Of a stretch of 41,467 nucleotides of DNA, positions 6,950 through 37,609 are shown piece by piece. The position numbers and the translations under genes are program-made. The stretch spans positions 1-41,467 of IMG/VR virus record IMGVR_UViG_3300036798_000159. One strand, 5' to 3'. Every line of letters starts with the position of its first letter. The stretch's first letter is position 1. Under the pieces are notes generated by a model, which did no database searches, was not told the DNA's origin, and was given only the letters and a program-made list of their open reading frames with translations. This DNA is from a virus (taxonomy: Duplodnaviria > Caudoviricetes).

Positions 6950-7041
6950 TTGATCACTCGTAGGTTTCTGTGTGTGGGCGCCGAAATTAGCCGGTGGCCT
7001 CTCGGGCGCAATGCGTTGCGTCGTCACATTGGGAGCTGGCC

Positions 7042-7212
7042 ATGAGCCTGCTGGTCTTCGCGCTGCTGGTGCTGATCGTCGTCGGGATCATTTGCGCCAT
7101 CGCCTATTACATTCCCTTCCCGCCGCCGCTGCTCTGGCTGAAGTGGGTGATCCCCTGCGTCGTGCTGCTGATCGCGGTGCTGCTGATCCTCCAGCGGATG
7201 GGCGTGGTCTAG
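7042..7212 (+). CDS. Small two-TM membrane protein (holin-like candidate)
   Basis: 56 aa with two hydrophobic helices; GGGAG RBS; TGATCACTCG motif at 6951. Confidence 0.55.
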   Translation: MSLLVFALLVLIVVGIICAIAYYIPFPPPLLWLKWVIPCVVLLIAVLLILQRMGVV

Positions 7213-11192: not shown

Positions 11193-11212
11193 GGTCTAGT
11201 CTCCGGTGTGTG

Positions 11213-12460: not shown

Positions 12461-12486
12461 CGCTGAAAATCTCCGGTGTGTGTGGG

Positions 12487-14133: not shown

Positions 14134-14330
14134 TTTGGGTCTTCCGTGTGTGTGGACTGAGGACGCACATGAAATTGCGCAACAGCCTTAAGCACAACGT
14201 ATTTTTTGCCGGGGTGACATTTCGCCAGCCTGTGCGCCTCGGTAAGTGCAATCTCGGCGGTGGCGTGACGGCGCTGCGGATTGGCGCCGTAAGGCGTCCA
14301 GACAAGGAAAAAGCCGTCCTCCAGGATCAC
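14130..14330 (-). CDS. Hypothetical phage protein
   Basis: FFLVWTP..PQRRHAT...A..EA.RLA..HPG..Y.VL. Confidence 0.6.
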   Translation of the reverse strand: MILEDGFFLVWTPYGANPQRRHATAEIALTEAHRLAKCHPGKKYVVLKAVAQFHVRPQSTHTEDPK

Positions 14331-14763: not shown

Positions 14764-15351
14764 CTAGCTTACGAAGGTAGCAAGTTGCTCGGTTACTATC
14801 CGGTCCGGGATCAGGGCGATAACGCGGGCCGCCCACACAATTTTTTGATCCGTCATCGGGAGCTGGTTTCTCAGGCTGAACAGATGGAAGAGTCCGGGTG
14901 TGGCGCTCGGCATGACGATGCGCATAAGCCGCTGCTGGGTCTTCAGCTCCACGACACATAGGCGCCCGACGATATCAGTCGGGAGCGCCTTGACCTGGGG
15001 CTGATCGTAAATCGCGAGCTGCCTATGCAGGCCATCCATGACCACGAGCGCCCGCGTAATGGCGCTTGGCGCTGAGGGAAACGCCACGGTTTCGCCGGTC
15101 GCCTCGCCGCAAACATTGAACACCGGCACGCGATCGCGAAGGGCGTCTTCGCGGCCATACAAGAGGAATTCCGGGGTGAGGCCAAAGAACCGCGCATACT
15201 GATCTGCACGCCGGGCGGGCAGGAACTTCTCGGCCCGTTCGTGCACGGTATAAGTTGGAACCGGGACGCCGATAGCTTCGGCGGCGTCCTTTGCAGTTGC
15301 GTAGCCATTGGCTTCGCGCGCGGTCTTCAACCGCTCTCCTGGTGTGCTCAT
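14764..15351 (-). CDS. CI-like repressor (XRE HTH plus C-terminal domain)
   Basis: GERLKTAREANGYATAKDAAEAIGVPVPTYTVHER...YARFFGLTPEFLLYG; divergent from the cro-like gene. Confidence 0.85.
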   Translation of the reverse strand: MSTPGERLKTAREANGYATAKDAAEAIGVPVPTYTVHERAEKFLPARRADQYARFFGLTPEFLLYGREDALRDRVPVFNVCGEATGETVAFPSAPSAITRALVVMDGLHRQLAIYDQPQVKALPTDIVGRLCVVELKTQQRLMRIVMPSATPGLFHLFSLRNQLPMTDQKIVWAARVIALIPDRIVTEQLATFVS

Positions 15352-21060: not shown

Positions 21061-21240
21061 AGCAGTTGCAAGCGCTTTCGCCGCAACGTCTTGAAACACA
21101 AGGGAAAGCCTGCGCTTTCGCTTTCAACGCTTTAGGGGCAAGCGTTGGACTGCTGAAAGTCAATGTTTTCAATGGGGCGGCCTCGCGTACGCGTAGCGCG
21201 CGCTCTTCGGCCCCCCCCCTAAAGGGGGAGGGGGCCTCAG
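21061..21240. other. Candidate replication origin
   Basis: Intergenic after the primase-helicase; repeated GCGCTTTCGC/AAGCG elements and a CCCCCCC-TAAA-GGGGG hairpin. Confidence 0.4.
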
Positions 21241-21245
21241 GTTAG

Positions 21246-21656
21246 ATGGAATATCTGAGCCCGAAAGCGGATGCGCTCCGTGGGCTTCGCGCATCGTCGC
21301 TTTGCGGGCTCGGTGATACGTCAACGGCGGAGGTGATCATGGTTGAGCTGCAAGCTGGCGCGGTTGAGGTGGAAGGGCGGTTGCTGCTGCTGGTGGATCG
21401 GATGAAGGCGATCCGGCGTGGGATCGTGAAGCGCAAGCGGACCCTGGCCAATAGCCAAGCCTATGTCGCGGCGGCGCGGGTTCCCAGGCCTGCGGACCGG
21501 GCGCGGTGGGCGAAGCTGGCGGGTGAAATCGTGGAGTTTGAGTTCATCCTGGCCAAGCTGGAGCGTGGTGAAGAGGTGGAGCTGTCGCCGCGCACCGGCA
21601 AGGGCTGCGCCACGCTGCCGGATTACCTAGGCCAGCGCGATCGGGAGGACACCTGA
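21246..21656 (+). CDS. Hypothetical protein
   Basis: Up to 136 aa; start uncertain. Confidence 0.5.
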   Translation: MEYLSPKADALRGLRASSLCGLGDTSTAEVIMVELQAGAVEVEGRLLLLVDRMKAIRRGIVKRKRTLANSQAYVAAARVPRPADRARWAKLAGEIVEFEFILAKLERGEEVELSPRTGKGCATLPDYLGQRDREDT

Positions 21657-21658
21657 CC

Positions 21659-22366
21659 ATGGCGCTATCACCGGAAGATTGCGCCATGCTGGCGGCCTAT
21701 TTCGAGGGCGTTGAGGCGGCGCGGAAAGAGGTTGAAGGCAAGTGGGGCGTGGGCCGGGTGGAGCTGCTGGCCGGTGACGATTTGCGGGCGAAGTGGCGTC
21801 GGCAATGCGCAAGCTGGCGGACGGTCTATGCGGCGGCCTGGGAAAGCCAATTCCTGACGCGGGATCAGCTCCAGGCGGTGCAGGACAAGGCGGCGGCGAT
21901 GCAGCGGGGCTATGTGGCGCTGGATGCGGCGGCGGAGGAAGCCGGACACCGGCCGATTGCGCCGTGGGTGTGGGAGGTGCTGCTGTCGGGGGGTGAGGTG
22001 GCGGCGATCGTCCAGACGAATGCGGAGGCGGGCAAGGTGATCGCTGACGGGCGGTATCTTGTGGTTTACACGTTGGCCGAAGTGGGCGCGGTCATTGCGG
22101 CTTTGCCGGACGCGCTGGCCCTGGCGAAACAGACGTTTCCGGGCGCCCGGTTCCAGGTTCCACGGTTCTCCAGCGCGATTGAGGATCAGCTCGGCGCCGG
22201 ACCCTGGCGGCCTGAGGGCGACGAAATCCCGTTCGGTGATCCGATAGGCCGCGAATTGCAGGCCGCACCCGCTCTGCCGCCAAGTGGCGGCCTCGCGAGT
22301 GGCCGCGAGCTGCAAGCCTTGGTCACGGCGCGGACAATGCCGGTGGAGGCTGAGACGTGGGATTAA
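21659..22366 (+). CDS. Hypothetical phage protein
   Basis: KWGVGRVELL...LRAKW, RGY.ALD..A..AGH.P; GGAGG RBS. Confidence 0.7.
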   Translation: MALSPEDCAMLAAYFEGVEAARKEVEGKWGVGRVELLAGDDLRAKWRRQCASWRTVYAAAWESQFLTRDQLQAVQDKAAAMQRGYVALDAAAEEAGHRPIAPWVWEVLLSGGEVAAIVQTNAEAGKVIADGRYLVVYTLAEVGAVIAALPDALALAKQTFPGARFQVPRFSSAIEDQLGAGPWRPEGDEIPFGDPIGRELQAAPALPPSGGLASGRELQALVTARTMPVEAETWD

Positions 22367-22878
22367 GCTCAACCTTAGGCCAAACCTGGAATGACGATCT
22401 TGTGGCGCAACTGCGCAGCCTGTGGGCGACCGGCCTGCCACGGTCGCAGATTGCGGCGCAGCTCGGGTTGACGGCGGGCATGGTGGCGGGGAAGCGGCAT
22501 AGTCTTGGCCTGCCACCGCGCACCGGCGAGGCGCGGCTGGCGGCGGAGGCGGCGAACGGTCGGCGCTCGGCAAGGCTGTGCGGGTTCGTCGGGCGGACGC
22601 TGAATCCGAAGTTTGAGCTGGAGGCGCCCGCTGCGCCGCTGGCTGGATCAACGCCTAGACCGTGGGAGCAACGCAACTTCGGGGAATGCGCCTTCCCGGT
22701 GGCGGGCTGGGGCGCGGAAACCTTGAGCTGCTGCCTGCCGACACTGGAAGTCGGGCCGTATTGCGAAGGCCACCGGGCGATCGTGGCGGGGCGCCCCTGG
22801 CCTCCCGTCGAGCCCTGCGGGCTCTCCGGGGGCCTCAATCTCGCCTCGCTCGATTTGCCACCTCAAGACGGGCCTTGA
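22357..22878 (+). CDS. gcrA: GcrA-family transcriptional regulator
   Basis: WNDDLVAQLRSLWATGLPRSQIAAQLG.T...VAGKRHSLGL; C-terminal ECAFPV...CC...PYCEGH. Confidence 0.85.
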   Translation: MGLSSTLGQTWNDDLVAQLRSLWATGLPRSQIAAQLGLTAGMVAGKRHSLGLPPRTGEARLAAEAANGRRSARLCGFVGRTLNPKFELEAPAAPLAGSTPRPWEQRNFGECAFPVAGWGAETLSCCLPTLEVGPYCEGHRAIVAGRPWPPVEPCGLSGGLNLASLDLPPQDGP

Positions 22879-22897
22879 CGGGCAATCTGATCACTCG
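22875..22897 (+). promoter_or_regulatory. Putative late promoter TTGACG-N7-TGATCACTCG
   Basis: Upstream of the terminase operon. Confidence 0.6.
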
Positions 22898-23702: not shown

Positions 23703-25268
23703 ATGTCTGACGAAGAAGAGGCGATCCGCCAGCGGTATAAGGATGATCGCCGCTGGTTCGCGGAGCGCTGCTTAAAAATCCGCACGAAGTCCGGCGAGCT
23801 GATGCCGCTGATCTTCAACGGTGTGCAGAGCTACATTGACCAGAAACTTGATGAGCAAGCGAGAAGCTTAGGTAAGGTTCGGGCTCTCGTTCTCAAGGCG
23901 AGGCAAGAAGGCCTATCAACTTACATAGGTTGCCGATTCTATCACCGGGCTATTCATCAGCGCGGGTGTCAGGTGTTTATTCTGACGCATGAGCAAGACG
24001 CCACGAATAACTTGTTCGGGATGGTCGATCGCTTCCACAAGCATAATAAGGTTGGGATCGGCCCGCGTACCGGCGCGGCGAATGCTAAAGAGCTGTTCTT
24101 CCCTGGCCTGGATAGCGGCTATTCGGTTGGTACGGCGGGGTCCAAGGCGGTCGGGCGGTCGAAAACGGTGCAGCTCTTCCACGGGAGCGAAGTGGCGTTC
24201 TGGCCCAATGCGGCGGAGCATTTCGCGGGCGTGCTCCAGACGGTGCCGGACCTGGACGGAACGGAAATCGTTCTGGAGTCCACGGCGAACGGGATTGGCG
24301 GGGAGTTTCACGAGCGCTGGCAACAAGCGGAGGCGGGCGACGGGGAATATTTGCCGCTGTTCGTCCCGTGGTTCTGGAGCGCGGACTATCAGCGGGCGCA
24401 GCCGGTTGGTTTCGAGCTGAACGATGAGGAAGAGGATTACGCGCGGTCGTATGGCCTGAGCGTCGAACAAATGGTGTGGCGGCGCGTCAAGCTGGCGGAG
24501 CTGAAAGACCCGAACCTGTTCCGGCAAGAATACCCGGCGACGGCGGCGGAGGCGTTCCAGGCCACGGGCCACGATGCGTTCATTGCAAGTCAACTCGTCC
24601 TGCAAGCGCGCAAGCGCAATTGTGAGGCGTTCGGAAGTCTGATCGTGGGAGTCGATCCGGCGCGGTTCGGCGATGACGGGTTCGCGGTGGCGTGGCGCCA
24701 AGGGCGCAAGGTGCTGAAGGTTGAGCGGCGGCACAAGCTGGACACGATCCAGGGCGCGAATTGGGTTCGGACGATCATTGATCGGGATAGCCCGGCGCGG
24801 GTGTTCATCGACGTGGGCGGCGCGGGCGCCGGTGTGGTCGATGTGCTCCAGGATTTCGGGGAGCCGTATGCGAAGTTGAGTGAAGGCGTGAACTTCGGCG
24901 GGGCGCCGCAGGAACCGACAACGGTGGGGGCGCGCGGTGAAATCATCCCCGGCCCGCGTAATCGGCGGGCGGAAATGTGGATGCGCTCGAAAGACTGGCT
25001 GACGGATGAGGGCGGCGCGGATTTGCCGGATGATGATGCGTTGCACGCGGACGCGGTGGCGCCCGGCTATCGTTATGATGCGAGGCAATTTTTGGTCCTT
25101 GAATCCAAGGAAGATATTCGCAAGCGCGGCCTGCGATCGCCGGACGGTTGGGATGCGGTGGCGCTGACGTTCGCGGCGCCGGTGCGGTCACGCGAAAGCG
25201 CCCCCAACGGGGGACGCTGGGGGCGCTGGAAAGGCTTAGGGCAAAGCCGGAGCCTATGGGGGGCTTAA
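23703..25268 (+). CDS. terL: Terminase large subunit
   Basis: LKARQEGLST, FHGSEVAFW, ESTANG, FRQEYP, VGVDPARFGDD, RSPDGWDA. Confidence 0.95.
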   Translation: MSDEEEAIRQRYKDDRRWFAERCLKIRTKSGELMPLIFNGVQSYIDQKLDEQARSLGKVRALVLKARQEGLSTYIGCRFYHRAIHQRGCQVFILTHEQDATNNLFGMVDRFHKHNKVGIGPRTGAANAKELFFPGLDSGYSVGTAGSKAVGRSKTVQLFHGSEVAFWPNAAEHFAGVLQTVPDLDGTEIVLESTANGIGGEFHERWQQAEAGDGEYLPLFVPWFWSADYQRAQPVGFELNDEEEDYARSYGLSVEQMVWRRVKLAELKDPNLFRQEYPATAAEAFQATGHDAFIASQLVLQARKRNCEAFGSLIVGVDPARFGDDGFAVAWRQGRKVLKVERRHKLDTIQGANWVRTIIDRDSPARVFIDVGGAGAGVVDVLQDFGEPYAKLSEGVNFGGAPQEPTTVGARGEIIPGPRNRRAEMWMRSKDWLTDEGGADLPDDDALHADAVAPGYRYDARQFLVLESKEDIRKRGLRSPDGWDAVALTFAAPVRSRESAPNGGRWGRWKGLGQSRSLWGA

Positions 25269-25437
25269 TCCCGCCATGGGCTGTTCGCGGTGGTCGGACG
25301 GATCACGATGGCGCGGATTTCTTTCGCCAACATGCGAAAGCATTCGGCGCCTTCAGGATCGCCGCAACTTTGGCGCTCGCGCGCCCAATCCATTGCGGCT
25401 TTGGCGGCTTCGCGGCGGACGGCGCTTGCGGTTTTCA

Positions 25438-25722
25438 TTAGCCGCGCCTCCGGGTTCTGGCGGCCTGCGGAGGCTCAGGGCTGGCCTCCAGCCTATCGGC
25501 GGCTACTTGGGTAGCTGGAGTCGGTTGAGCGGCCTCCAGGGCGCTGAATTTCAACATCAGGCGGACGGCGACGGATACCGGACCGGGGATCGGGTGGCGT
25601 TCGGTTTCCCAAGTCCAGACGTTGCGGCCTGGGTCGCGGCCTCCAAGCTCCAGGGCGCGGCCTAGGTCGGCGGCGGTGAGGTTCAGCCGCGCGCGGGCGG
25701 CGATCAGTTCGGCGGCGGTCAT
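25438..25722 (-). CDS. XRE HTH protein
   Basis: MTAAELIAARARLNLTAADLGRAL...VWTWE...IPGPV. Confidence 0.75.
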   Translation of the reverse strand: MTAAELIAARARLNLTAADLGRALELGGRDPGRNVWTWETERHPIPGPVSVAVRLMLKFSALEAAQPTPATQVAADRLEASPEPPQAARTRRRG

Positions 25723-26003
25723 TGTGTGGGCTCCTGATCTGCGTCGCGGCCAAGGTAATCGAGGTTGAACCACGCGCCGCTGTCGGCCATGCCTTGGATG
25801 CTCATAGGGCCGTCGATTTTGTCGTATTGGACGCGGCTTTCGTTCCAGCGAAACACCGGCGGCTTGTCGCCGGGCGCCATCAGGCGGGCAAACATGGCGG
25901 TGAGCTGGGCGGCGCGCTTGTGGCCTAGCGCGTGGTCGGCGGGTTTGCCTTTGGCATATGGCGGGTCCAGCTCAATCCAGACGCGTTGCATGGTGTCGGT
26001 CAT
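25719..26003 (-). CDS. Hypothetical protein
   Basis: 94 aa; CA motif and RBS upstream. Confidence 0.65.
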   Translation of the reverse strand: MTDTMQRVWIELDPPYAKGKPADHALGHKRAAQLTAMFARLMAPGDKPPVFRWNESRVQYDKIDGPMSIQGMADSGAWFNLDYLGRDADQEPTQ

Positions 26004-26032
26004 AGTCTCGGTTCCTGTGTGTGGGCGGGCGG

Positions 26033-26305
26033 CTAGAGTTTGCCGCTCCAGATATCGAAGGGGATGGGGTCGGTGATCATTTCGCCCGGTCGGGCGCGGC
26101 GGATCAGGTCGGCTTCATGCAAGCGAACCTGTTTCGTCCAGGTGCGCGAACGCTTGCGCCATTTCAGGACCATGACGCGGTAAGGCGTGCGGCCATACAC
26201 GGTGCCGAATTGGGTGTTTTGGGTTCCGAATTTGATCAGGATTTGGTCGCCGCGTTTTAGCTCGGCGAAGACTTCGGCGCGGGTTTCGCGGGGTGTGTCG
26301 GTCAT
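26033..26305 (-). CDS. Hypothetical protein
   Basis: MTDTPRETRAE..., 90 aa; CA motif upstream. Confidence 0.65.
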   Translation of the reverse strand: MTDTPRETRAEVFAELKRGDQILIKFGTQNTQFGTVYGRTPYRVMVLKWRKRSRTWTKQVRLHEADLIRRARPGEMITDPIPFDIWSGKL

Positions 26306-26339
26306 GTGCGGGGTTCCTGCGGTGTGTGTGGGGATTTGA

Positions 26340-26621
26340 TCAGGCGTAGCGGGCGGCAACACCGGCCCAAAGGTTGGCGGCGGGTCCGCCGGGTGGCGGG
26401 CTGTCGGCGGCTGCGGAGGCGGCGGCGAAGGCTACGGCGCGGGCCGTGGGGCCGTTGCGGCTTAGGTGGCGCCAGCCGCCTAGGCCGCGTCGGCTGGCGG
26501 CGCACATAACCTGGACGTGGGCGAAACCGCCGTTGTCGAAAAGGACGTCGTAAGTTTTCTCCTTCTGTTTCACCCGAAAGCGGGTCGTGTGGGTGGCGAT
26601 GACGTGTTGTCCGATCTGCAT
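26340..26621 (-). CDS. Hypothetical protein
   Basis: MQIGQHVIAT..., 93 aa; CA motif upstream. Confidence 0.6.
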   Translation of the reverse strand: MQIGQHVIATHTTRFRVKQKEKTYDVLFDNGGFAHVQVMCAASRRGLGGWRHLSRNGPTARAVAFAAASAAADSPPPGGPAANLWAGVAARYA

Positions 26622-26643
26622 GGGTCTAGCTCCGGTGTGTGGG

Positions 26644-26850
26644 TTAGTAGGTTTCAGCCGGTCCACCCTCTTGGGTGAATAGGTCGATCAGGTCGAAAGC
26701 GTCGGCATATTCAAAGGTGACTTTTTCGGGCGGTCCATAGCTGCCGCCTTGTTCTTCCAGCCGTGCAAGCACGGCTTTACGGGTTTTGGCGCGGACGCTG
26801 TAACAGGGTGCATCGTTCAGGCATGGCGCGACCCAATAGGTTAGCTTCAT
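26644..26850 (-). CDS. Hypothetical protein
   Basis: 68 aa MKLTYWVAPCLND..; CA motif upstream. Confidence 0.65.
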   Translation of the reverse strand: MKLTYWVAPCLNDAPCYSVRAKTRKAVLARLEEQGGSYGPPEKVTFEYADAFDLIDLFTQEGGPAETY

Positions 26851-26881
26851 GGTCTAGGTTCCTTCGGTGTGTGGGTTGGGG

Positions 26882-27217
26882 TTAGGCGACGCAGCGCAGG
26901 AACGCGCCGCGTCCGTGGTTCTTGCCGCCGCAGGCGCATTCGCATTCCATGGCGCGGCCTTTGGCGTTGATGCATCGGACGTCGCAAACGTGGCGCGACG
27001 GGCTGGATTTCAAGCGGACGGTGCGGGTGATCCGGGTCCAGCCGTGTTGCGGGTGATACCCGGCAAGCTTGCCGTCTTCACGGTGGCCAACCTTGGCGGA
27101 AATGGTGCGGCGGCGCGGGTTGCCGAAAAGGTCAACGTCGCCGGTGTGCTCGGTGGTGTCCTTCCACTCTAGGACTGTCCCGTCCTGGAGGTCGGCGTAG
27201 TAGGCGAAGGCGGCCAT
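26882..27217 (-). CDS. Cys-rich putative Zn-binding protein
   Basis: CDVRCINAKG...CECACGGKNHG. Confidence 0.7.
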   Translation of the reverse strand: MAAFAYYADLQDGTVLEWKDTTEHTGDVDLFGNPRRRTISAKVGHREDGKLAGYHPQHGWTRITRTVRLKSSPSRHVCDVRCINAKGRAMECECACGGKNHGRGAFLRCVA

Positions 27218-27442
27218 TCAAGCCGCCTGAATCCAGAACGTGAAGCTGTGCACCTCACTCATGCGGTTGAGGATTTCAGCCTTACGCTTGGCCTCTCCCT
27301 CGCCCATCGTGAAGGCCTCGGCGCGCGGGCCAATCCAGCCCTCGCCACCGCGTCCGGTGTAGTATTGCGGCTCGCCTTGCTTGTTCCAGCCGGTGGTCAA
27401 AACGAAGCGGTCGGCCATAGGCGGAATGTTCAGGGTGGTCAT
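27218..27442 (-). CDS. Hypothetical protein
   Basis: 74 aa; CA motif upstream. Confidence 0.65.
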   Translation of the reverse strand: MTTLNIPPMADRFVLTTGWNKQGEPQYYTGRGGEGWIGPRAEAFTMGEGEAKRKAEILNRMSEVHSFTFWIQAA

Positions 27443-27466
27443 GGGTCGGTGTCCTGTGTGTGTGGG

Positions 27467-27856
27467 TTAGCGGCGAACGCGGTCGGCGCGGAATGCGGTG
27501 TCTGAGGCCTCGGCGGCTTTCAGGATGCGGGTGAAGAGTTCGGCGCGGTAGTCGGTGGCGCGCTTGGCGGTTTCGCCAAAGCCTGCGCCCAACACCTTGG
27601 CCAGCGCCATGCCGTGCGCGAGGCCGGAGGCGCAGGTGAGCGGTTGGCTGGGGCACGTCATGGCGGACACGAAATTCTCAACCATGAGCGCGCGGGTGTA
27701 GATGCCTTCGCCGCGTTGCTTGCGGTCGATGCGATAGGCCTCGTGCCAAAGGTTGAATTCGCTGTGTCCGGTGCGCTCCAGCGCGTAGCTGATCAGGTCG
27801 AAAGCGTCGATGATTACGGCGCGTTCTTTGCGGGTCATGGTGGCGGCGGTGGTCAT
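27467..27856 (-). CDS. Hypothetical protein
   Basis: 129 aa; CA motif upstream. Confidence 0.65.
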   Translation of the reverse strand: MTTAATMTRKERAVIIDAFDLISYALERTGHSEFNLWHEAYRIDRKQRGEGIYTRALMVENFVSAMTCPSQPLTCASGLAHGMALAKVLGAGFGETAKRATDYRAELFTRILKAAEASDTAFRADRVRR

Positions 27857-27910
27857 GGTTCAGGTTCCGTGTGTGTGTGGGTGGCGCGGCTTTCGCCGCG
27901 CCGTTGGCGT

Positions 27911-28156
27911 CTATTTCTTGAAGGCTTCCCGGTAGGTCTTGGCGTCTACGATTTGGACCGCGACGATTTCGTGGTCGTAGTAGTCGCCAGCGTTGCGGGC
28001 GGCGCCAGCGGCGGACGTTGAAAAGCTGGGGAGGCGGTCAACGCGCTTGCCGTCGCGGAATTTCACGGCGGCGTGGGTGAAGCCGTAATCATTCTGCGAG
28101 GCGCGGCCAACGGGTTCGCCAGCCTTCGTGAAACCTAGGTAATGGGTCTTAGTCAT
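27911..28156 (-). CDS. Hypothetical protein (first gene of the leftward operon)
   Basis: MTKTHYLGF..., 81 aa; GGAG RBS. Confidence 0.65.
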   Translation of the reverse strand: MTKTHYLGFTKAGEPVGRASQNDYGFTHAAVKFRDGKRVDRLPSFSTSAAGAARNAGDYYDHEIVAVQIVDAKTYREAFKK

Positions 28157-28253
28157 TGGGTGTTCTCCGTGTGCGGGTTGTCTCAAGCGCCCGGCAAAAC
28201 AGGCGATTGAGAAACCCGGCGGCGCCTGTCACGCGCCGCGCGGTTTTCATTTG

Positions 28254-28363
28254 GGCCTTCCCTTCTCTCAGCCGGTTCCGTGCGCTTTCCGTCGCGCTTC
28301 CGTCTTTCACGGTTCGTCCGTCACTGAGCCTTTTGGGAAGGCCTCGTTTCACAATGTCAAAGA
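28254..28363 (-). promoter_or_regulatory. Structured operon leader with boxA-like element
   Basis: TCTTTGACATTGT followed by a GGCCTTCCC/GGGAAGGCC stem enclosing four ACGGA motifs. Confidence 0.5.
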
Positions 28364-28877
28364 TCACTTGCCCTCGTGGGCGGCGGTCCGGTCAACTCCG
28401 CCGCTACCGCGACGGGAGCTAATATCTACACTGTCACTGTGTATGTGTATACCCCTCCAGTGTCGCACCCTGTGTCGCACCTAAGCCGCGCGTCGCGCCT
28501 CGTGTGCGGAGCGCGCGGCAAGGCTGCTTAGGCTCCAGGGAAGCCGCTGGAGGCCTGCGGCGCAGGCTGGCGGAGGCAGGGTCACGGAATGTGATTGGAC
28601 GCTAAAACAGACGTCCTAGCAGGTTGGGCGCGCGCGCTGCTTTCCGTGCCTTCGACTCTCGGTCCGCCGGACCGATCGACCCGTCGCCGTCCGGTCCGGT
28701 CCAGGCGCATCGCTCCGGGAGCGTTTGGTTTCCCTCGGCGAAGGCCTGATCCTGGCCATTTTCCCCTCAATCTTCCCTCGGCGCTGGCCTGCGGCTGGCG
28801 GCGCCTGGGGTGGGTGAAATCTCCAGGAGGGGCGCCCCGTCCGGTGCTAGGGCCACGGGGGGTGGGGGGCCATGAAT

Positions 28878-29993: not shown

Positions 29994-30106
29994 GTTGCTC
30001 CCAGCCTATGGAGAGCTATGAGGTTGAGACAGACTCCCCCGCCGGGGCGGCTCTTTTCCGAGCCCTCGGAACGCCCTCCAAACCCGGCGGGGGGATTTTC
30101 AAAGAG

Positions 30107-30129
30107 CTGGCGGCCTAAGTGATCACTCG
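30107..30129 (+). promoter_or_regulatory. Putative late promoter CTGGCG-N7-TGATCACTCG
   Basis: Upstream of the head operon; ATG at 30144. Confidence 0.5.
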
Positions 30130-30491: not shown

Positions 30492-30656
30492 TGCGTCTCT
30501 GGTGGCAGACGTCACCGGAGCGGCTGCAACGCCGCTATGAGGCCAGCCGTCGGGCGTGGCGAGAGTCGCATCCGTTGATTCCGGGATCGAGCTGGACGCC
30601 CCCGCCGGGACACCCCCGCGAAGCCGAGTTCCTTGGCCAGCCTGCGGATCGCCCGC

Positions 30657-32771
30657 ATGAGTGACGCGCCAACCCGTGGGCCGCAGTTCGACGCCGCGCC
30701 GACTCCGGTGACGCCCGAAAATGACGATGACGAGCTGCTGGAACGCTTCGCCGATTGGCAGGTGAAGTTGGATGGCCATTGGAGCCAGTGGCGGCAAGGC
30801 GCCCGGCTTTCCTATGCGTTCGTCGCCGGGGATCAGTGGACCGACGAAGAGAAGAGCCAGATGGATTCCGCCGCGAAAATCGCGGTGACGTTCAATCTGA
30901 CCGGTCCGGTGATTGATGCGGTGCAGGGCGCCGAGATTCAGAACCGCCAACAGGTGCAGTTCTATCCGCGCGAGGTCGGCGACACCGGCGTGTCGGACGT
31001 ACTGACGCAGGGCGCCGACTATGTGACCGAAGAGTGCAACGGCGATCAGGAGGATTCAGAATCCTTCTGGGATTGTCTCGTTTGCGGTCTGGGCTGGACG
31101 GAGACGCGCCCGGAAATCGACGGCGATCAGGTGCGCTTGCTGAAAGAGCGGGTGGACCCGTTGCAAATGTTCCCGGACCCTTCGGCGCGCAAACGCTGTC
31201 TGGAGGACATGCGCTATGTGAAGCGCGAAATCCCGATGTCGAAAGACGAGTTCGATGACTTCAAAGAGGAAATCGGGCGCGAGGATTTAGACGAAGACCT
31301 GGACGGTATGGACCCGAGCGGCAAACGAGTCACAATCGTCAATCCCTCGGTCCGCTACACCCATGGGCTGTTGGGGACCGATCCCGACGAAGACGCGGTA
31401 ATCGTCTGCGAATGGCAATGGTGGGACCGTGAGCCGGTGATGCTGGCCGGGGTTCCTGATCCGCAAACCGGCGTGGTGAAAATCACCCAAATGTCGCCGG
31501 ACGAGCTGAAACAGGCGCAGGCGGCGGACCCCACGCTCCGCTACTCGAAATCCCACAAGAAGGTCTATTACCGGGCCTTCGCCACCGACACGGAAGTGTT
31601 GTTCAAGGAACAGCTTCGCGAGAACGATTTCCGTTACAAGCCGATCACCGGCAAGCGCGATCGCAACAACGGGACGTGGTACGGGCTGGTCAAGGCGATG
31701 ATGGACCCGCAGCGGTTCACCAATAAGCTTTACTCGGAAATCCTCCACATCATCCGCACCAACGCCAACGGCGGCATGGCCTTGGAAGAGGACGCGGTGG
31801 AGGACATTCGCCAGTTTGAATCCACTTGGGCGGCGACGGATCGGATCACATGGCTGAAGTCGGGCGCGCTCTCCGGCGCCCACGGGTCGAAAATGGCCCC
31901 GAAGACCCCGCCGACCATCCAGCCCGCGCTTTTTCAATTGATGGATTTCGCACAGTCGATGGTGAAGGCCACCACTGGCGTGAACGAAGAGATTCTTGGG
32001 CTGGTGGGCCGCGAACAGGCGGGCGTCCTGGAGCAACAGCGCAAACAGGCGGCCTATGGAATCCTATCCGCCTTCTTTGATGCAAAACGCCGCTATCAGC
32101 GGGAGCAAGGCAAGTTGTTGCTGGCGCAGATGCGCGTCTATTTCCCGCCCGACAAGCTGGTGCGGATCGTGGATCAGGGGTCGGCGCAGTATGTGCAGCT
32201 CGCGACGGCTCTGGAGACGCAGGAATACGATATCGTGGTGGACGAGGCGCCTGCCGGGCCGGATCAAAAGGCCAAGGTCATGCAGGTGCTGATGCCGCTG
32301 CTGCCGCAGCTCCTGGATGCCGGGTTGATCGGGCCGCAGGCGCTCGCCGATGTGATCCCTTACCTGCCGATCCCGGCGGCGGTGGCGAACAAGCTGGCGC
32401 AAGCGATCATGCAGCAAATGCAGATGCAGCAAACGCCGAACCCGGTGGCGCAACAAATGGGCGCCGCCGAGCTGGAGAACAAACAGGCGGATACAGCGAA
32501 GAAGGGCGCAGATGCGCAGCTCGCCACCGCCAAGGCGTTCAACGTCACCACCGACGCCCACGGCAAGCACATGGGGTTCATGGCGGGGGTCAAGCACAAC
32601 GAGGCGCCCGGCTGGGCGCCACCGGCGCCGCCGATGAATGTGGGCGTTGGGCCGCAGCCGGGCGGTCCGCAAGCCAGCTCGCCCGCGCAAGTTGGGCCGC
32701 AGGCGCCGGGCGTGGCTCCGAACGCGCCTCCAGGCGGCCCGCCGCAACCGGGCGGGATACCGCCGCAGTAG
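30657..32771 (+). CDS. Portal protein, P22-like
   Basis: F.AGDQW, TFNL..P.ID.V.G.E..NR, GLV..M.DPQR..NK..S; Gln/Pro-rich C-terminus. Confidence 0.92.
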   Translation: MSDAPTRGPQFDAAPTPVTPENDDDELLERFADWQVKLDGHWSQWRQGARLSYAFVAGDQWTDEEKSQMDSAAKIAVTFNLTGPVIDAVQGAEIQNRQQVQFYPREVGDTGVSDVLTQGADYVTEECNGDQEDSESFWDCLVCGLGWTETRPEIDGDQVRLLKERVDPLQMFPDPSARKRCLEDMRYVKREIPMSKDEFDDFKEEIGREDLDEDLDGMDPSGKRVTIVNPSVRYTHGLLGTDPDEDAVIVCEWQWWDREPVMLAGVPDPQTGVVKITQMSPDELKQAQAADPTLRYSKSHKKVYYRAFATDTEVLFKEQLRENDFRYKPITGKRDRNNGTWYGLVKAMMDPQRFTNKLYSEILHIIRTNANGGMALEEDAVEDIRQFESTWAATDRITWLKSGALSGAHGSKMAPKTPPTIQPALFQLMDFAQSMVKATTGVNEEILGLVGREQAGVLEQQRKQAAYGILSAFFDAKRRYQREQGKLLLAQMRVYFPPDKLVRIVDQGSAQYVQLATALETQEYDIVVDEAPAGPDQKAKVMQVLMPLLPQLLDAGLIGPQALADVIPYLPIPAAVANKLAQAIMQQMQMQQTPNPVAQQMGAAELENKQADTAKKGADAQLATAKAFNVTTDAHGKHMGFMAGVKHNEAPGWAPPAPPMNVGVGPQPGGPQASSPAQVGPQAPGVAPNAPPGGPPQPGGIPPQ

Positions 32772-32784
32772 GAAAGCCAACGCG

Positions 32785-33645
32785 ATGAGTGAAGCCCGCG
32801 ACGCCGATCAGGAGTTTGATGATGGCCAAGAAAATGAAGACGCCGAATCCGTTTCAGAAGAGCGCGAAGACGGCGACGACGGCGACGACGAAGGCGAATC
32901 CGCCCGGCCTGCTGCAAAACCTGTCGATTGGGAAAATAAATCCCATTCTTATGCCGGGCAAGCCGCCGCCGAGCGGTCCCGTCGCCACGCGGCGGAGAAG
33001 CGGGCGAATGAGCTAGAAACCCGCCTGGAGGCGCTGGAATCCCGCACCGGCGGCGATCCTGACGAGCTGCTGGCGCTGATTGGCCACCTGCGGGACGATG
33101 AAGACGATCCGGTGGGCGATATCGCGGCGGTGAAGCGGGCGTTGAAGCTGTTTCGGCAACGCGAAATGGGCTCCGTCGAGGAAACCCGTGCGCAGGTGAA
33201 GGCCAATCGCGAAGTCGAGGCGGTGAAAAGCTCGATGGCGGACGCCGAACAGGATTTCGCGCTGGAACACCCGGACTATCACGAGGCGGCGCAGTTTTAT
33301 CGCAAGGATCGCACCGAAGAGCTTCAGGAATTGGGCTATCGCGGCGACGCGCTGATGGCCAAGCTTAGCCAAGACCTGTTTGGGCTGGTGCGGACCGCGT
33401 TCGCATCGGGGATGGACCCGGCGGAGCGGGTTTATAAGCTGGCGGCCAAGCGCGGCTTCAAGCCCGGCGGCAGGGCGGCGGACAAGAAGTTGGACGCGTT
33501 GGATCGCGCTGGCCAAACCGGAATCAGGCCGCAGGCGCGCTCTGTCGCCGGGGTGTTGACTTGGGCCGATGTCGCCAAGCTGGACGGCGCTGCGCGCGAC
33601 AAGGCGTGGGCCAAGCTTCGGGATCGCGAGCGCGCCCGTAAATGA
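32785..33645 (+). CDS. Capsid scaffolding protein
   Basis: Acidic N-terminus, coiled coil, HPDY, DPAERVYKLA..RG; lies between portal and MCP. Confidence 0.75.
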   Translation: MSEARDADQEFDDGQENEDAESVSEEREDGDDGDDEGESARPAAKPVDWENKSHSYAGQAAAERSRRHAAEKRANELETRLEALESRTGGDPDELLALIGHLRDDEDDPVGDIAAVKRALKLFRQREMGSVEETRAQVKANREVEAVKSSMADAEQDFALEHPDYHEAAQFYRKDRTEELQELGYRGDALMAKLSQDLFGLVRTAFASGMDPAERVYKLAAKRGFKPGGRAADKKLDALDRAGQTGIRPQARSVAGVLTWADVAKLDGAARDKAWAKLRDRERARK

Positions 33646-33725: not shown

Positions 33726-33937
33726 CGCAGGACGAGGATACTTATGTCCAGGCGGCGGGCATTGCCGATCGGCTGTTGGCGCAGGGCCTGCCGCTTTTGG
33801 GGTTCGCGTCGGTGGACCTGGGCGCCAAAGCTTTATTTACGATCCAGGACGGGGACGGTCGCTGTTGGGCGTTCCGGGTTCCGCGTGAGAATTTGAAGCT
33901 GGAAAGCGTCGAGGAAATGGTGCGGGCGTACTTGTGA
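33722..33937 (+). CDS. Hypothetical protein
   Basis: 71 aa from GTG 33722. Confidence 0.55.
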   Translation: MTQDEDTYVQAAGIADRLLAQGLPLLGFASVDLGAKALFTIQDGDGRCWAFRVPRENLKLESVEEMVRAYL

Positions 33938-34116
33938 CGCCGCACGTCGCGGGCTATCTCAGAAGCGTTCCTGTGTGTGGGAAACAAGCCGCCTGCGGCC
34001 TCGTGATCGGGAAACCGCTCGGGCGCCGCAGGCGGTGGGTCCGCTCCTGGTGAGCTGGGCCGCCGCTGAATAGCGTACTCGGGCGCGAAATCCCCCCCAC
34101 GGGCGCCCGTCGTCAC
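33934..34116 (+). ncRNA. Candidate structured non-coding RNA with a GUGUGU loop
   Basis: Nested stems GTGACG/CGTCAC, GCTAT-TCAG/CTGA-ATAGC, CCGCCTGCGG/CCGCAGGCGG with CGG-GAAA-CCG, and TTCCT-GTGTGT-GGGAA. Confidence 0.5.
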
Positions 34117-34152
34117 TCTCCCCCTCGGCGTCGGCCCCTTCTCCCTCAAAAC

Positions 34153-34175
34153 TTGACGCCCTGATTGATCACTCC
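34153..34175 (+). promoter_or_regulatory. Putative late promoter TTGACG-N7-TGATCACTCC
   Basis: Upstream of the major capsid gene; a second TGATCAC follows at 34182. Confidence 0.6.
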
Positions 34176-34320
34176 AACGGGTGATCACGCCTAGGCCTTG
34201 CCTGGGTTCTGCTTGGCCAGCACACAACCGGCCATTTCGCCTCGCGGGAGCGCATTTCCCGCCGCCGGGACCGCACGCGACGCGGTGAAGCCAATTCCCT
34301 TCACCCCACGAGGCGCGGCA

Positions 34321-35391
34321 ATGGCCGGAACCGTTTATGGCGTGAATGCTCCTGAAGCTGTGAAGCTTTGGAGGTCACAACTCGCACGGGAAGCTCTGAA
34401 AGCGACCTGGATTCAAAAGTTTATCGGCGATACCTCGGATGACATTATCCAGGTGTACGACGAAACCGGCAAAAGCGCTGGCGATCGCGTGACGGTCACG
34501 CTGCGGATGCAGTTGAACGGCGATGGTGTCGCCGGAGACGGCACGCTGGAAGGCAATGAAGAGGCGCTGACCACGTTCACCGACAACCTGTTTGTCGATC
34601 AGCTCCGCCACGCGGTCCGCTCCGGCGGCAAGATGACGGAGCAACGCATTCCCTGGAAAATCCGGGAAGAGGCCATGATGGGCCTGAAAGATTGGTGGGC
34701 GGGCCGTTTGGATACGGCTTTTTTCAATCAGCTCTCCGGCTACACGCCTGCGGTGGACGTCCGCTATACCGGCATGAATGCGGTGATCGCCCCGGACGCC
34801 AACCACATCGCCCGTCCGAACGCCAAGGCGTCGGATCAGGCGTTAGCGGCGGGCGATGAAATGTCCCTGGCGCTGATCGACAAGCTGGTGGAGAGCGCCA
34901 AGCTGGGATCGACCACGGGGACGGGTCCGGTGATCCGGCCTGTGACGGTGGATGGTGAGGACCACTATGTCGTGGTCATGCACACGCGTCAGGTGACGCA
35001 GATGCGGACCAATATCGCCACCGGCCAATGGTTGGATATCCAGAAGGCCGCGACCCAAGGCGACGGCTCCAGCAAGAACCCGATCTTTACCGGGGCGCTG
35101 GGGGTCTACAACGGCGCCGTGCTGCACGAGAGCACGCGGGTGACGAACGGGGTGGACTCCGGCTCCGGCGCCGCCGTGTTGACGGCGCGGCGGGCGATCC
35201 TGCTGGGGGCGCAGGCGGCAAGCATCGGCTTCGGCCAAGGCCAATCGTTCAAAAACTTCGATTGGAACGAAGAGCTGTTCGACTACGGAAACCAACTCGG
35301 CGTCGAGGCCGGGCTGATCCACGGTCTGAAGAAGCTCCGGTTCAACGCGCAGGACTTCGGCGTCATCGTCGGGTCCACGTTCACGAATTAG
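34321..35391 (+). CDS. Major capsid protein (N4-gp56/DUF4043-like)
   Basis: AVKLW, K.AGDRVT..L...L.G.GV.GD..LEGNEE.L, DQLRHAV, NPIFTGALG.YNG, W.EE.FDYGN, KK.RFN..DFGVI. Confidence 0.92.
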   Translation: MAGTVYGVNAPEAVKLWRSQLAREALKATWIQKFIGDTSDDIIQVYDETGKSAGDRVTVTLRMQLNGDGVAGDGTLEGNEEALTTFTDNLFVDQLRHAVRSGGKMTEQRIPWKIREEAMMGLKDWWAGRLDTAFFNQLSGYTPAVDVRYTGMNAVIAPDANHIARPNAKASDQALAAGDEMSLALIDKLVESAKLGSTTGTGPVIRPVTVDGEDHYVVVMHTRQVTQMRTNIATGQWLDIQKAATQGDGSSKNPIFTGALGVYNGAVLHESTRVTNGVDSGSGAAVLTARRAILLGAQAASIGFGQGQSFKNFDWNEELFDYGNQLGVEAGLIHGLKKLRFNAQDFGVIVGSTFTN

Positions 35392-35400
35392 GAGGGTCGA

Positions 35401-35778
35401 ATGGCCACCGGCGGTCGCAAGACCCAATATCAAGTCATCCACGAAATCAGTGCGCAGTTCGGTTTCGGGCAGACGTCGGGGATCATCGGCGTGCTGCCTG
35501 CGGGCGCCATCGCCATGACCACGCATCTGCTGACGTCGCAGGTGTTCAACTCCACCACGAATACGCTGGCGGTCGGCACAACGCCGGGCGGCAATCAGTT
35601 CTTGGCGGCCTCTGATCTGCACGCGGCGGTCGCGCGGGTCGATACGCCGGTTCCGGCGGCCTCCATGGGGCCGTTCGCGGTGGACACGCCGATTTACGGA
35701 ACCGTGGCCTCCACCGGTCCGGCGCCCACGCAAGGCGTCGCGACGGTGTGGATCGACTATCTGCCCGGCCCTGGATGA
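35401..35778 (+). CDS. Capsid decoration/cement protein
   Basis: 125 aa beta-rich, directly after MCP; GVLPAGA...T.G.A.V.IDY. Confidence 0.65.
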   Translation: MATGGRKTQYQVIHEISAQFGFGQTSGIIGVLPAGAIAMTTHLLTSQVFNSTTNTLAVGTTPGGNQFLAASDLHAAVARVDTPVPAASMGPFAVDTPIYGTVASTGPAPTQGVATVWIDYLPGPG

Positions 35779-35785
35779 GGCTGCC

Positions 35786-37609
35786 ATGGCGTCAGGCCGG
35801 GATAGCGGGCTCCAGGCTGTCCAATTCATATCGCGGTCGGTCACGCCGCTGGTTCCCGGCCTCGTGGCCGGGACTCCGGTGGGCGTGCTGCCTGCCGGGG
35901 CGGTAGCGCGCAATCTGCATATCCTGACGCCGATGGCGTGGTTCGCGGCGGGCGCCGTGACTTTGAGTGTCGGCTTGACGCCGCTGGGCTCTGAGCTGGC
36001 CGCTGGGATCGATCTGAAGACGGTCGGGCGGACGGATACGGCGGTGCCGATCGCGGCCATGGGGCCGTTCTCGAAAGACACGCCGATCTATGCGTCCGTC
36101 CAGGGCGCGGCCTGGGTCGATCACCTGACGCCGAATGATCTGACGGTGAGTAGCGCTGCCGTGCCAATGGTTCCGGGGGCGCCGGTCGGCACGCTGGCGG
36201 GGATGGCGCCGGGCTCAACGCTGATGCTGCTGGGCGCCAGCGGGCGCCTGACGCTGGCGGGCTACGCGTTGTTTACCGGGCAGAGTCCGGCGACGAGCGG
36301 TTCATTCGCGGAGACGATCCGCGATATCAATGCGGCTTACCCGGCGCCCGGCTACCACGATACGACGCTTGTGTTCACGGCGGGCGGCGGCGTGGTGACG
36401 GTGGAGGCCTATGGCATCAATGCCGCCCCGCCGATCCCGGCGAATGCACAGATGATCAGTCCAGGCCAGCTCTGGACGAAAATCAACGCGGCGCAGCCGG
36501 GCGACATTCTCGGGCTGAATGTCGGGGATTGGACGGATGACGTCTACAATCTGACCGGGGTGGTGAAGGGCAACACCGGCCAACCGTATGTGACGATTTG
36601 GGGGCAACCGGGCTGCATCGCCCGCTACATCGACACAACCGGGTGCGTCGGTATCGAAATGATCGGCCTAAGCCTGAACAGCACGGGCGGGCCGACGCAA
36701 ATTTTCATCACCTCGGGGAGCCATTGCCGGTTCGCCTATATCTCCTGTGAAGGCAACACCGACTATCCGCGCGCCTTCATGGTGCGGGCCAACGCCGGGC
36801 CGGGGACGTTCGTGCAGGACTGCGAAATCGTGCATTGCGATTTTCGCCACGTCTACGGCTTCTCAGTCGCCAACTACGCCGATCCCGGCACGGTCCGCGA
36901 TGTGCGGATCACCGATAATCGTATCCAGCATTGGGGGACGGACGGGGCGCTGGTGATGAACGCCACGAGCCTCAAGTTCCAGCGCAATATCTTCTATGAT
37001 TGCAACGATTTCGGCGATCACAACGATATGTTTCAGACGGCGAACACCGGCCTGAACACCGACACGCCGTATTTCGACCCGATCACCGGCAAGAATGTTT
37101 CGGTGTGGGTTGAGTCTAATCTGGCGATCACGGAGCTGGGTTCGGCGAACGGGACGGCGGTGCAGGGCATCCCGTTCATGGGCGACGCGGCGGCGGGTGT
37201 CCTGGTGCGCTATAATTGTTCGTGGGGATGCAGCGCCAACGGCGGCAACTTCGCGGGGGTGGACACCGGCACGGTGACGGCGAATTTCTGGCAGGCGATC
37301 ACCGGGGGGCCGTCCTGGGCGCCCCTAACCATTCTGCAATGTCCCAATCTCTCGGTGACGAACAATCAGGCGGACCACTTTTCGATCGACACGCAATCGG
37401 ACCCTTCGGTGTTCGGTAATGTGCTGATCCCGGACGCGGCGTCGAACGCCGACACGGCGCTGCGCGACGCATTCATTCGGCAACATAGCTTGCCGCATAG
37501 CTTCACCGATTATGCGATCGCGCTGGCCAATAGCCCGGAGGTCCAGGCGGCCACGCCAAGCTCCGGCCAAACGATTGTGGCGCTCGATTACATCGCGCGG
37601 GCGGCATGA
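35786..37609 (+). CDS. Decoration-domain protein with an inserted right-handed beta-helix (head spike/depolymerase-like)
   Basis: Termini paralogous to 35401-35778; central INAAQPGDIL.L..G, Asn-rich repeats and DHNDMFQ. Confidence 0.65.
   Translation: MASGRDSGLQAVQFISRSVTPLVPGLVAGTPVGVLPAGAVARNLHILTPMAWFAAGAVTLSVGLTPLGSELAAGIDLKTVGRTDTAVPIAAMGPFSKDTPIYASVQGAAWVDHLTPNDLTVSSAAVPMVPGAPVGTLAGMAPGSTLMLLGASGRLTLAGYALFTGQSPATSGSFAETIRDINAAYPAPGYHDTTLVFTAGGGVVTVEAYGINAAPPIPANAQMISPGQLWTKINAAQPGDILGLNVGDWTDDVYNLTGVVKGNTGQPYVTIWGQPGCIARYIDTTGCVGIEMIGLSLNSTGGPTQIFITSGSHCRFAYISCEGNTDYPRAFMVRANAGPGTFVQDCEIVHCDFRHVYGFSVANYADPGTVRDVRITDNRIQHWGTDGALVMNATSLKFQRNIFYDCNDFGDHNDMFQTANTGLNTDTPYFDPITGKNVSVWVESNLAITELGSANGTAVQGIPFMGDAAAGVLVRYNCSWGCSANGGNFAGVDTGTVTANFWQAITGGPSWAPLTILQCPNLSVTNNQADHFSIDTQSDPSVFGNVLIPDAASNADTALRDAFIRQHSLPHSFTDYAIALANSPEVQAATPSSGQTIVALDYIARAA

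Follow-up and report, generated by a model that had tools for sequence, protein, structure and literature searches.

A candidate phage small RNA whose 5' seed mirrors, and changes together with, a tag over the ribosome-binding regions of accessory genes

In the head region of a phage genome, just upstream of the capsid gene, a noncoding gap holds a copy of a CA-rich motif that otherwise stands before start codons of genes read in the opposite direction. Why should a motif of ribosome-binding regions recur once, in reversed sense, where there is no start codon for it to precede? The genome is the IMG/VR virus record IMGVR_UViG_3300036798_000159, analysed over its entire 41,467 nucleotides (hereafter the window). 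A sequence-only reading had proposed that the gap encodes a late-expressed, trans-acting RNA which occludes the ribosome-binding sites of about a dozen early genes. Our analysis finds a start tag, one intergenic antisense copy of that tag with which a conserved unit of two hairpins begins, and seeds and tags that change jointly among relatives. The account that we consider probable, though well short of assured, is that a trans-acting small RNA made from a predicted sigma70 promoter silences a probably early accessory regulon by blocking translation, most likely already in the lysogen.

The window represents a podophage, one of a family of temperate and uncultured phages, and its host is probably an alphaproteobacterium, as judged from the GcrA homologue of the phage and from a GTDB scan of the capsid, where the nearest matches are MAGs of Proteobacteria and Caulobacteraceae. 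The best of these matches (L115-L117, 65-73%) contain neither the gap nor the element. The genome is near-complete (96%, with a 204-nt terminal repeat) and carries primase and terminase genes in addition to those listed in Table 1. An integrase was found in 14 of 14 family records of at least 29 kb. The closest capsids of named phages are less than 50% identical, and a blastn comparison of the gap with GenBank phages gave a single 27-nt chance match.

The motif CACACAC occurs 17 times in the window, at 11 places and only on the minus strand, while shuffling yields a mean of 2.9 and a maximum of 8 and reached 17 in none of 100 shuffles. Ten of these places lie upstream of leftward start codons and the remaining one is the gap copy (33973-33979), so that the gap indeed holds the sole full copy away from a leftward start; an eleventh tagged start, 28156, carries the variant CGCACAC. 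The surrounding GTTCCTGTGTGTGGG occupies 33967-33981 and is identical in 15 of 15 positions to 26011-26025, as had been noted before. In full, the tag of the window reads CCCACACAC..GGA, a CA run followed by the GGA core of the Shine-Dalgarno sequence, and it overlies the ribosome-binding region of 11 leftward genes. The spacing between run and core differs by 0-5 nt among tags, a variation that is tolerable for a bulged RNA duplex.

Read rightward, 33967-33981 is predicted to pair with the 11 start regions at -16.5 to -30.5 kcal/mol, between positions -29 and -6, so that the CA run and, as a rule, the GGA core are covered (Table 1); these predicted target sites are spread across 21 kb. Of 4822 noncoding 16-nt windows scored for pairing with leftward starts, the one at 33967 takes first place. 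At -20 kcal/mol, one of four pairing-energy thresholds tried, 8 of 26 called leftward starts but 0 of 37 rightward ones count as partners of the seed, and none of 1000 shuffled seeds reaches 8; at the loose threshold of -15 the contrast is weak, 42 of 1000 shuffled seeds matching the observed count. With accessibility included, the 5' seed is used by 9 of the 12 best start regions, and all strong targets use nucleotides 1-15 of the predicted RNA. Together with the co-variation of seed and tag among relatives, this contrast between leftward and rightward starts supports the earlier proposal of an antisense RNA that acts in trans on some dozen leftward genes through their ribosome-binding regions.

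Table 1. Genes, predicted elements and predicted target sites in the window (energies in kcal/mol)
Feature	Position	Strand	Remarks
Integrase gene	7682-9016		
Repressor-like HTH gene	14764-15351		
GcrA homologue	22357-22878		
Cassette of small leftward genes	25265-28156		between terminase and portal
Portal gene	30633-32771		
Presumed scaffold gene	32785-33645		named from position only
N4-gp56-type capsid gene	34321-35391		
Predicted sigma70-type promoter of the RNA	33932..33960	+	-35 TTGTGA 33932-37, 17-nt spacer, -10 TATCTC 33955-60
5' seed hairpin UUCCU-GUGUGU-GGGAA	33967..33985	+	nt 1-15 predicted pairing seed; predicted +1 G33967
Long GC-rich second hairpin	33988..34036	+	16 bp and inner GAAA-capped stem; predicted stability scaffold
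3' part of predicted RNA	34037..34152	+	further stems, C-rich loop 34092-34099, C/U-rich end
Separate late-type capsid promoter TTGACG-N7-TGATCACTC	34153..34174	+	matching signature at 22875 and 653
Shared signature TTGA(C/T)G-N7-TGATCACTC	653-674, 22875-22896, 34153-34174	+	partial at 30120 and 6951
Tag/target, start 28156	28162..28177	-	duplex -26.3; first leftward cassette gene
Tag/target, start 27856	27864..27881	-	duplex -24.5
Tag/target, start 27442	27452..27465	-	duplex -23.2
Tag/target, start 26850	26858..26875	-	duplex -24.5
Tag/target, start 26621	26629..26643	-	duplex -26.0; start missed by gene caller, hand-added
Tag/target, start 26305	26313..26332	-	duplex -24.4
Tag/target, start 26003	26011..26025	-	perfect 15-bp complement, duplex -30.5; best start with accessibility included
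Partial tag CCCACACA, start 25722	25723..25730	-	immediately before the start; -8.8 with accessibility
Tag/target, start 14133	14142..14156	-	duplex -21.2; 300-aa gene downstream of repressor-like gene; start hand-added
Tag/target, start 12460	12471..12486	-	duplex -21.9
Weaker tag/target, TTG start 11192	11201..11212	-	duplex -16.5; start hand-added
Tag/target, start 6949	6964..6978	-	duplex -23.6; left of integrase; 15-29 nt upstream of ATG

The gap extends from the end of a small ORF at 33937 to the capsid start and contains two units, the sRNA element (approximately 33932-34150) and the capsid promoter with its leader (34153-34320). The -35 box, the -10 box and the +1 near G33967 were placed on the basis of TTG and TA columns that are conserved, 17 nt apart and just upstream of the seed, in an alignment of seven GU-seed sequences; a strict consensus scan of the window found neither this promoter nor a U-tailed terminator. 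TTG lies 16-18 nt before the -10 box in 19 of 26 elements, against a background of 3.2%, a figure inflated by the definition of these elements through a -10 box picked by eye after the motifs had been seen. In clade B, the promoter TTG falls inside scaffold codons. We infer that the RNA is transcribed from its own promoter.

The minimum-energy fold of 33934-34116 (z -2.3; 3 of 200 shuffles equally stable) contains every stem named in the sequence-only reading, but the two outer ones, 33934-39/34111-16 and 33953-62/34066-74, probably do not form part of the RNA, since their sequence is shared in part with the preceding stop codon and with the predicted -35 and -10 boxes. For the stem 33988-34003/34020-34036, with its inner GAAA loop, the predicted stability is high (z -5.0; 0 of 200 shuffles). 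A hairpin presenting the seed in its loop is predicted as described earlier, but taken alone it is weak (-3.9 kcal/mol, z -0.9) and alternative folds exist. Folding of the 3' part differs between predictions, and the predicted RNA is about 80-185 nt long. An Rfam scan of the window to E 5 found no family at gathering score and five weak chance matches elsewhere in the window; L030, L103 and L101 likewise gave no match at gathering score. The adjoining capsid leader (34180-34320, plus strand) carries conserved hairpins with CACG/CACGTCA loops, present in many relatives including those without the gap element, and these are a possible cis element for capsid translation or packaging.

Relatives were collected by a capsid scan, which matched 599 stretches of which the best 80 were used, and by portal scans that supplied more. 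The GU seed is kept in seven records, the window and six relatives, where TGTGTGGGA is invariant (7/7) and lies in a short hairpin; of these relatives, L103 (3 of 3 called starts) and G001 also carry tags. Most elements fold into a hairpin at the 5' end and, after it, a long GC stem that is unrelated in sequence, and the fold of the first 90 nt has z below -2 in 21 of 26 elements as well as in the second unit of G011. U-tailed hairpins close the element in G006, L221, L010, G011, G017 and L102, though not in the window. Structural covariation, a check that the sequence-only reading had put forward, was modest in the GU group, where the RNAalifold consensus was weak (12 pairs, of which 5 show two-sided change), and absent from the 5' hairpins of clade B, which gave no consensus pairs and fold singly with the seed in or beside loops of differing size.

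A quick capsid tree places all elements within one supported clade of 29 rows, clade B being a subclade of it, and no such gap element was found in the rows outside; in G008 and G018 no element was seen. Mostly, the element lies behind the scaffold gene in the rightward head region, but inserted ORFs part it from the capsid gene in L101, G009, G012, G014 and L024, and in G011 the unit is inverted together with its -10 box and U-tailed hairpin and is still antisense to the tags. A scaffold-protein scan of viral contigs returned nothing. Among 34 loci found by a pattern scan for members, six belong to the family, one of them new; a second pattern scan gave 3 members among 119 loci, none new, and no other locus with three tagged starts.

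In the sequences compared, mirror seed and tag co-vary across relatives. Seeds in the gaps of other relatives match their own tags, TTGAGCATCC with GGATGCTCAA, TTCCATAGCT with AGCTATGGAA and GTCTGTCC with GGACAGAC. Thus, G009, G010, G014, L020 and L039 have leftward cassette genes with GGATGCTC(AA) directly before the start codon (tag class GGATGCTCAA) and gap elements with GAGCATCC (TTGAGCATCC in four of the five), G017 combines tag AGCTATGGAA with seed TTCCATAGCT, G011 combines tag GGACAGAC with its inverted element, and L221 combines tag CCTATCAC with seed GTGATAGG; L010 and G005 have CGCTAGGA and TCCTAGCG, G016 has CCCATGAC, and the overlapping record L008 has GTCATGGG. Tags differ completely between phages with 70-86% identical capsids. 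They also stand before rightward starts in G009, G014 and L020, where they follow the mRNA sense, and in G010 the complementarity runs across the AUG.

These correspondences were quantified in several ways, an early k-mer scan with all ATGs having been noisy, with an edge artefact in G004, and replaced by whole-gap and genome-wide tests. When noncoding gaps, on both strands, were compared with 19 sets of called cassette starts, an 8-mer of the own gap was complementary to 3-7 starts in 11 sets, to two starts in two and to one start in six; for the first 13 of these sets, between 0 and 35 of 300 shuffles did as well as the real sequence. Some gaps also matched starts of another seed class, chiefly those of G007, G003 and G009, and the G011 gap takes in the start, itself tagged, of an inserted gene. 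Over whole genomes, an 8-mer common to at least three starts exists in 7 of 15 records, and in all seven a top noncoding antisense copy lies in the gap, with ties at tagged rightward starts (G009, G014) or at one other site (G006, G011); the antisense copy of G006 is probably within an uncalled ORF. The other eight records have no 8-mer common to three called cassette starts. In an energy test against other seed classes, in which records of one seed class are related and not independent counts, the own element took the top rank in 11 of 17 cases, spread over 5 of 9 classes, was second or fourth in three, and failed in G003 (rank 13 of 17), G004 (17 of 17) and G006 (15 of 16).

Some records fall outside this pattern. 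G018 and G006 carry the tag CAGATCAGGA with no clear antisense element, and G007 has GAGCATCC in its gap while no tagged starts were found in it. Sites of the CAGATCAGGA start tag are G018 15452 and 16556, G006 34882-35949 and L221 2724 (minus strand, capsid-plus orientation). In L001/G003, a second GTGTGTGGGAG word lies in the gap at about 30005-30015, the main element has another seed and two cassette starts carry CACACA; this word is possibly a remnant of the GU system.

Most target proteins are without a Pfam or PHROG function. The leftward cassette suggests early accessory or anti-defence genes, because near-consensus sigma70 promoters are present in the cassettes of G014 and G009 and because tagged genes of relatives encode, among others, ArdC anti-restriction and DUF932 proteins. 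Along the leftward cassette of G014 (minus strand, capsid-plus orientation), near-identical strong sigma70 promoters (TTGAC-N-TAGAAC) recur at 7154, 7768, 9083 and 10582. In the window, a sigma70-like promoter lies near 28451-28423 on the minus strand, with the direct repeat GGTGCGACAC immediately upstream, and the cassette leader of about 260 nt (28160-28485, minus strand) shows GAAA-type hairpin-like runs, possibly an operator and an antitermination element.

A different signature is common to the promoters before the terminase region (22875), the capsid gene (34153) and a virion operon (653), and relatives have another private 8-11-mer in the slot of TGATCACTC; we take the promoters with this signature to be late ones. 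The GcrA homologue is a candidate activator of the signature promoters. The sRNA promoter is without the TGATCACTC word and resembles a host sigma70 promoter. Given this promoter, the temperate lifestyle of the phages and the early-type cassettes, expression in the lysogen and in early infection appears most likely and is favoured over a late-only switch.

In the mechanism that we propose, the predicted host sigma70 promoter would drive synthesis of a small RNA with its 5' end at about G33967; the first 15 bases of this RNA are complementary to the CA-rich tag and Shine-Dalgarno core of the 11 leftward genes. A target mRNA would invade the weak 5' hairpin and form 10-15 bp, with bulges, over positions -29 to -6. 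The duplex would cover the CA-rich enhancer and the GGA core, or core and AUG in clade B, and thereby block initiation of translation. An RNA made in the lysogen and from the first moments of infection, as this one most likely is, would hold leaky early genes silent and, as its level rises, damp their expression; a phage-specific seed would confer an immunity-like specificity, as with C4 of P1 and P7.

The same RNA and targets could instead act late only, through read-through or processing of a portal-scaffold transcript or late activation of the promoter, as a pure early-to-late switch. The position of most elements behind the scaffold gene in the rightward head region agrees with this, as do the GcrA homologue, which could activate promoters late, and a search between the upstream ORF and the element that found no terminator. 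We nevertheless hold a late-only RNA to be unlikely, since a conserved promoter of the element's own resembles sigma70 promoters and is free of the late signature, and since the G011 unit lies on the strand opposite the late transcript; these grounds, and the finding that relatives have the element inverted or parted from the capsid gene, also leave its description as a late-expressed head operon transcript unsupported, although late read-through is possible. Pairing might also activate or stabilise the mRNAs, or mainly titrate the RNA, which we regard as improbable: the GGA core lies within the predicted duplexes, as does the start codon in clade B, and covering either normally blocks initiation. 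The sign of regulation is unreadable from sequence, and other outcomes are described for PreS (PMC12197685) and SviR (bioRxiv 10.1101/2022.04.08.487710) in the available text of these sources.

Asymmetric tags that are oriented with transcription and lie in short intergenic gaps also recall the stoperators of cluster A mycobacteriophages, a precedent documented in the accessible part of PMC9283540, and the tags could accordingly be DNA sites for a phage protein, with the gap copy as an operator at +1 to +15 of the promoter, a classic operator position; the tags of G018 and G006 without a clear antisense copy would fit such sites. This is a rather remote prospect, because the gap copy runs against the local direction of transcription in every case, the inverted G011 unit included, and sits in hairpin loops or linkers, because the tags are fixed over the Shine-Dalgarno sequence with variable internal spacing, follow the mRNA sense on rightward genes too and are wholly changed between phages with similar capsids, and because the complementarity in G010 extends over the AUG. 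Least probable of all, we believe, is that the CA run serves only as a translation enhancer, as ACA motifs can according to the available text of PMC3879156, and that the gap hairpin is a chance match or a cis element of the capsid leader, forming the kissing loop with CACACA at 34221-34226 that the sequence-only reading had offered as its alternative. CACACA is present at 34221, but CACAC/ACACA occurs in the capsid leader of just 2 of 7 GU-seed records, inserted ORFs cut the element off from the capsid gene in five records, and non-CA tags co-vary with non-GU seeds. Pairing of the RNA with the repressor mRNA (C-rich loop versus 15351) was rejected, as the own element ranked 7, 25, 24, 2, 8, 11, 20 and 14 of 27. 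In L028/G011 (21000-21268), the gap holds two divergent small-RNA-like units, and the loop GCCCCCTA of the plus-strand unit of G011 is complementary to the ribosome-binding site of its own repressor, with a rank of only 8 of 27. Silencing by a trans-acting RNA remains the reading that we prefer; the element is real and conserved, and the computed comparisons argue strongly for a phage sRNA with many targets and with a seed that co-evolves with the regulon.

As in known trans-acting sRNAs, the element shows a conserved, accessible seed complementary to the initiation regions of several distant mRNAs. The Rfam scan of the window to E 5 matched neither GcvB nor the C4 antisense RNA (RF01695), whose two target sites lie in its own immI operon. 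According to the available part of PMC5320573, C4 of P1 and P7 is a three-stem RNA that is cut by RNase P and has two pairing loops, a' and b'; it is a temperate-phage RNA that pairs through loops with ribosome-binding regions of phage mRNAs and acts in lysogeny or immunity, and small loop changes set its phage specificity. The likeness to our family, in which seed and tag co-vary in silico, is functional only: the window element is a tandem of hairpins with one 5' seed, not a three-stem junction with two loops, and it has about 11 predicted sites over 21 kb, its own predicted promoter and a seed that is replaced as a whole between relatives. The multi-target GcvB of enteric bacteria pairs just upstream of the Shine-Dalgarno sequence on ACA enhancer motifs, in the accessible text of PMC3879156, much as the GU seed would on the CA tag; GcvB, however, is a host RNA with host targets, and the likeness is limited to the GU seed class, other family members being non-GU. 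SviR, of the Vibrio cholerae satellite PLE, is likewise an sRNA that a mobile element encodes and that acts in trans on several targets, some of which belong to that element's own genome, but it sets a satellite against a helper phage, and the preprint text available describes no repeated start-codon tag and no seed-tag replacement (bioRxiv 10.1101/2022.04.08.487710). The phage RNAs sar (P22), OOP and aQ (lambda), PreS, VpdS and 24B_1 also take part in the lysis-lysogeny decision, yet they are cis-antisense to a single target or act on host genes, and none silences a tagged set of own genes, as far as the available text of PMC12197685 goes. Within the literature surveyed, mainly open-access main texts, we found no sRNA by which a phage silences a group of its own genes marked by a tag.

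A further parallel is provided by the start-associated sequences (SAS) of cluster K mycobacteriophages, as portrayed in the available parts of PMC3203893, PMC11373665 and PMC12699233: in these temperate phages, an asymmetric repeat stands a few bases before the starts of non-structural genes, and PMC3203893 describes, for four K1 genomes, one reversed copy away from a gene start. The repeats differ from the tags of the window family in sequence, with the SAS consensus GGGATAGGAGCCC compared with CCCACACAC..GGA, GGATGCTCAA and others, and they belong to another host and phage family. The function of SAS is stated to be unknown, and an RNA or protein partner is left open with none named in the text available (PMC3203893). 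In the K1 phage Anaya (JF704106 59870-59882; L249:34871-34883), the lone reversed SAS copy lies in the loop of a GC hairpin in the gap between genes 96 and 97. The region, present in many cluster K phages, matched 157 phage records; seven aligned phages retain the hairpin, three of them with a loop that has drifted from the SAS complement. No lone SAS copy was found in ZoeJ 25000-57315. Anaya possibly encodes an anti-SAS RNA, which we note as a lead only.

The general picture that we put forward tentatively, and judge to have slightly less than an even chance of being right, is that of an RNA-addressed regulon, in which one sRNA with a swappable 5' seed acts on a private tag over the ribosome-binding site of every silenced gene, seed and tags having been rewritten together at least five times to give RNA-based immunity groups; the same design may explain the SAS of cluster K, with its lone reversed copy in a conserved hairpin loop. 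This would suggest a testable answer for SAS, the function of which is called unknown in the available texts of 2011, 2024 and 2025. In the parts of the literature surveyed, known phage antisense RNAs have one or two phage targets or act on host genes, whereas here one short seed would address a whole accessory cassette. The natural swaps of seed and tag constitute ready-made compensatory pairs, and such orthogonal pairs have a potential use in multiplex translational control. If true, the proposed mechanism would add a translational layer to prophage silencing and to the specificity of superinfection.
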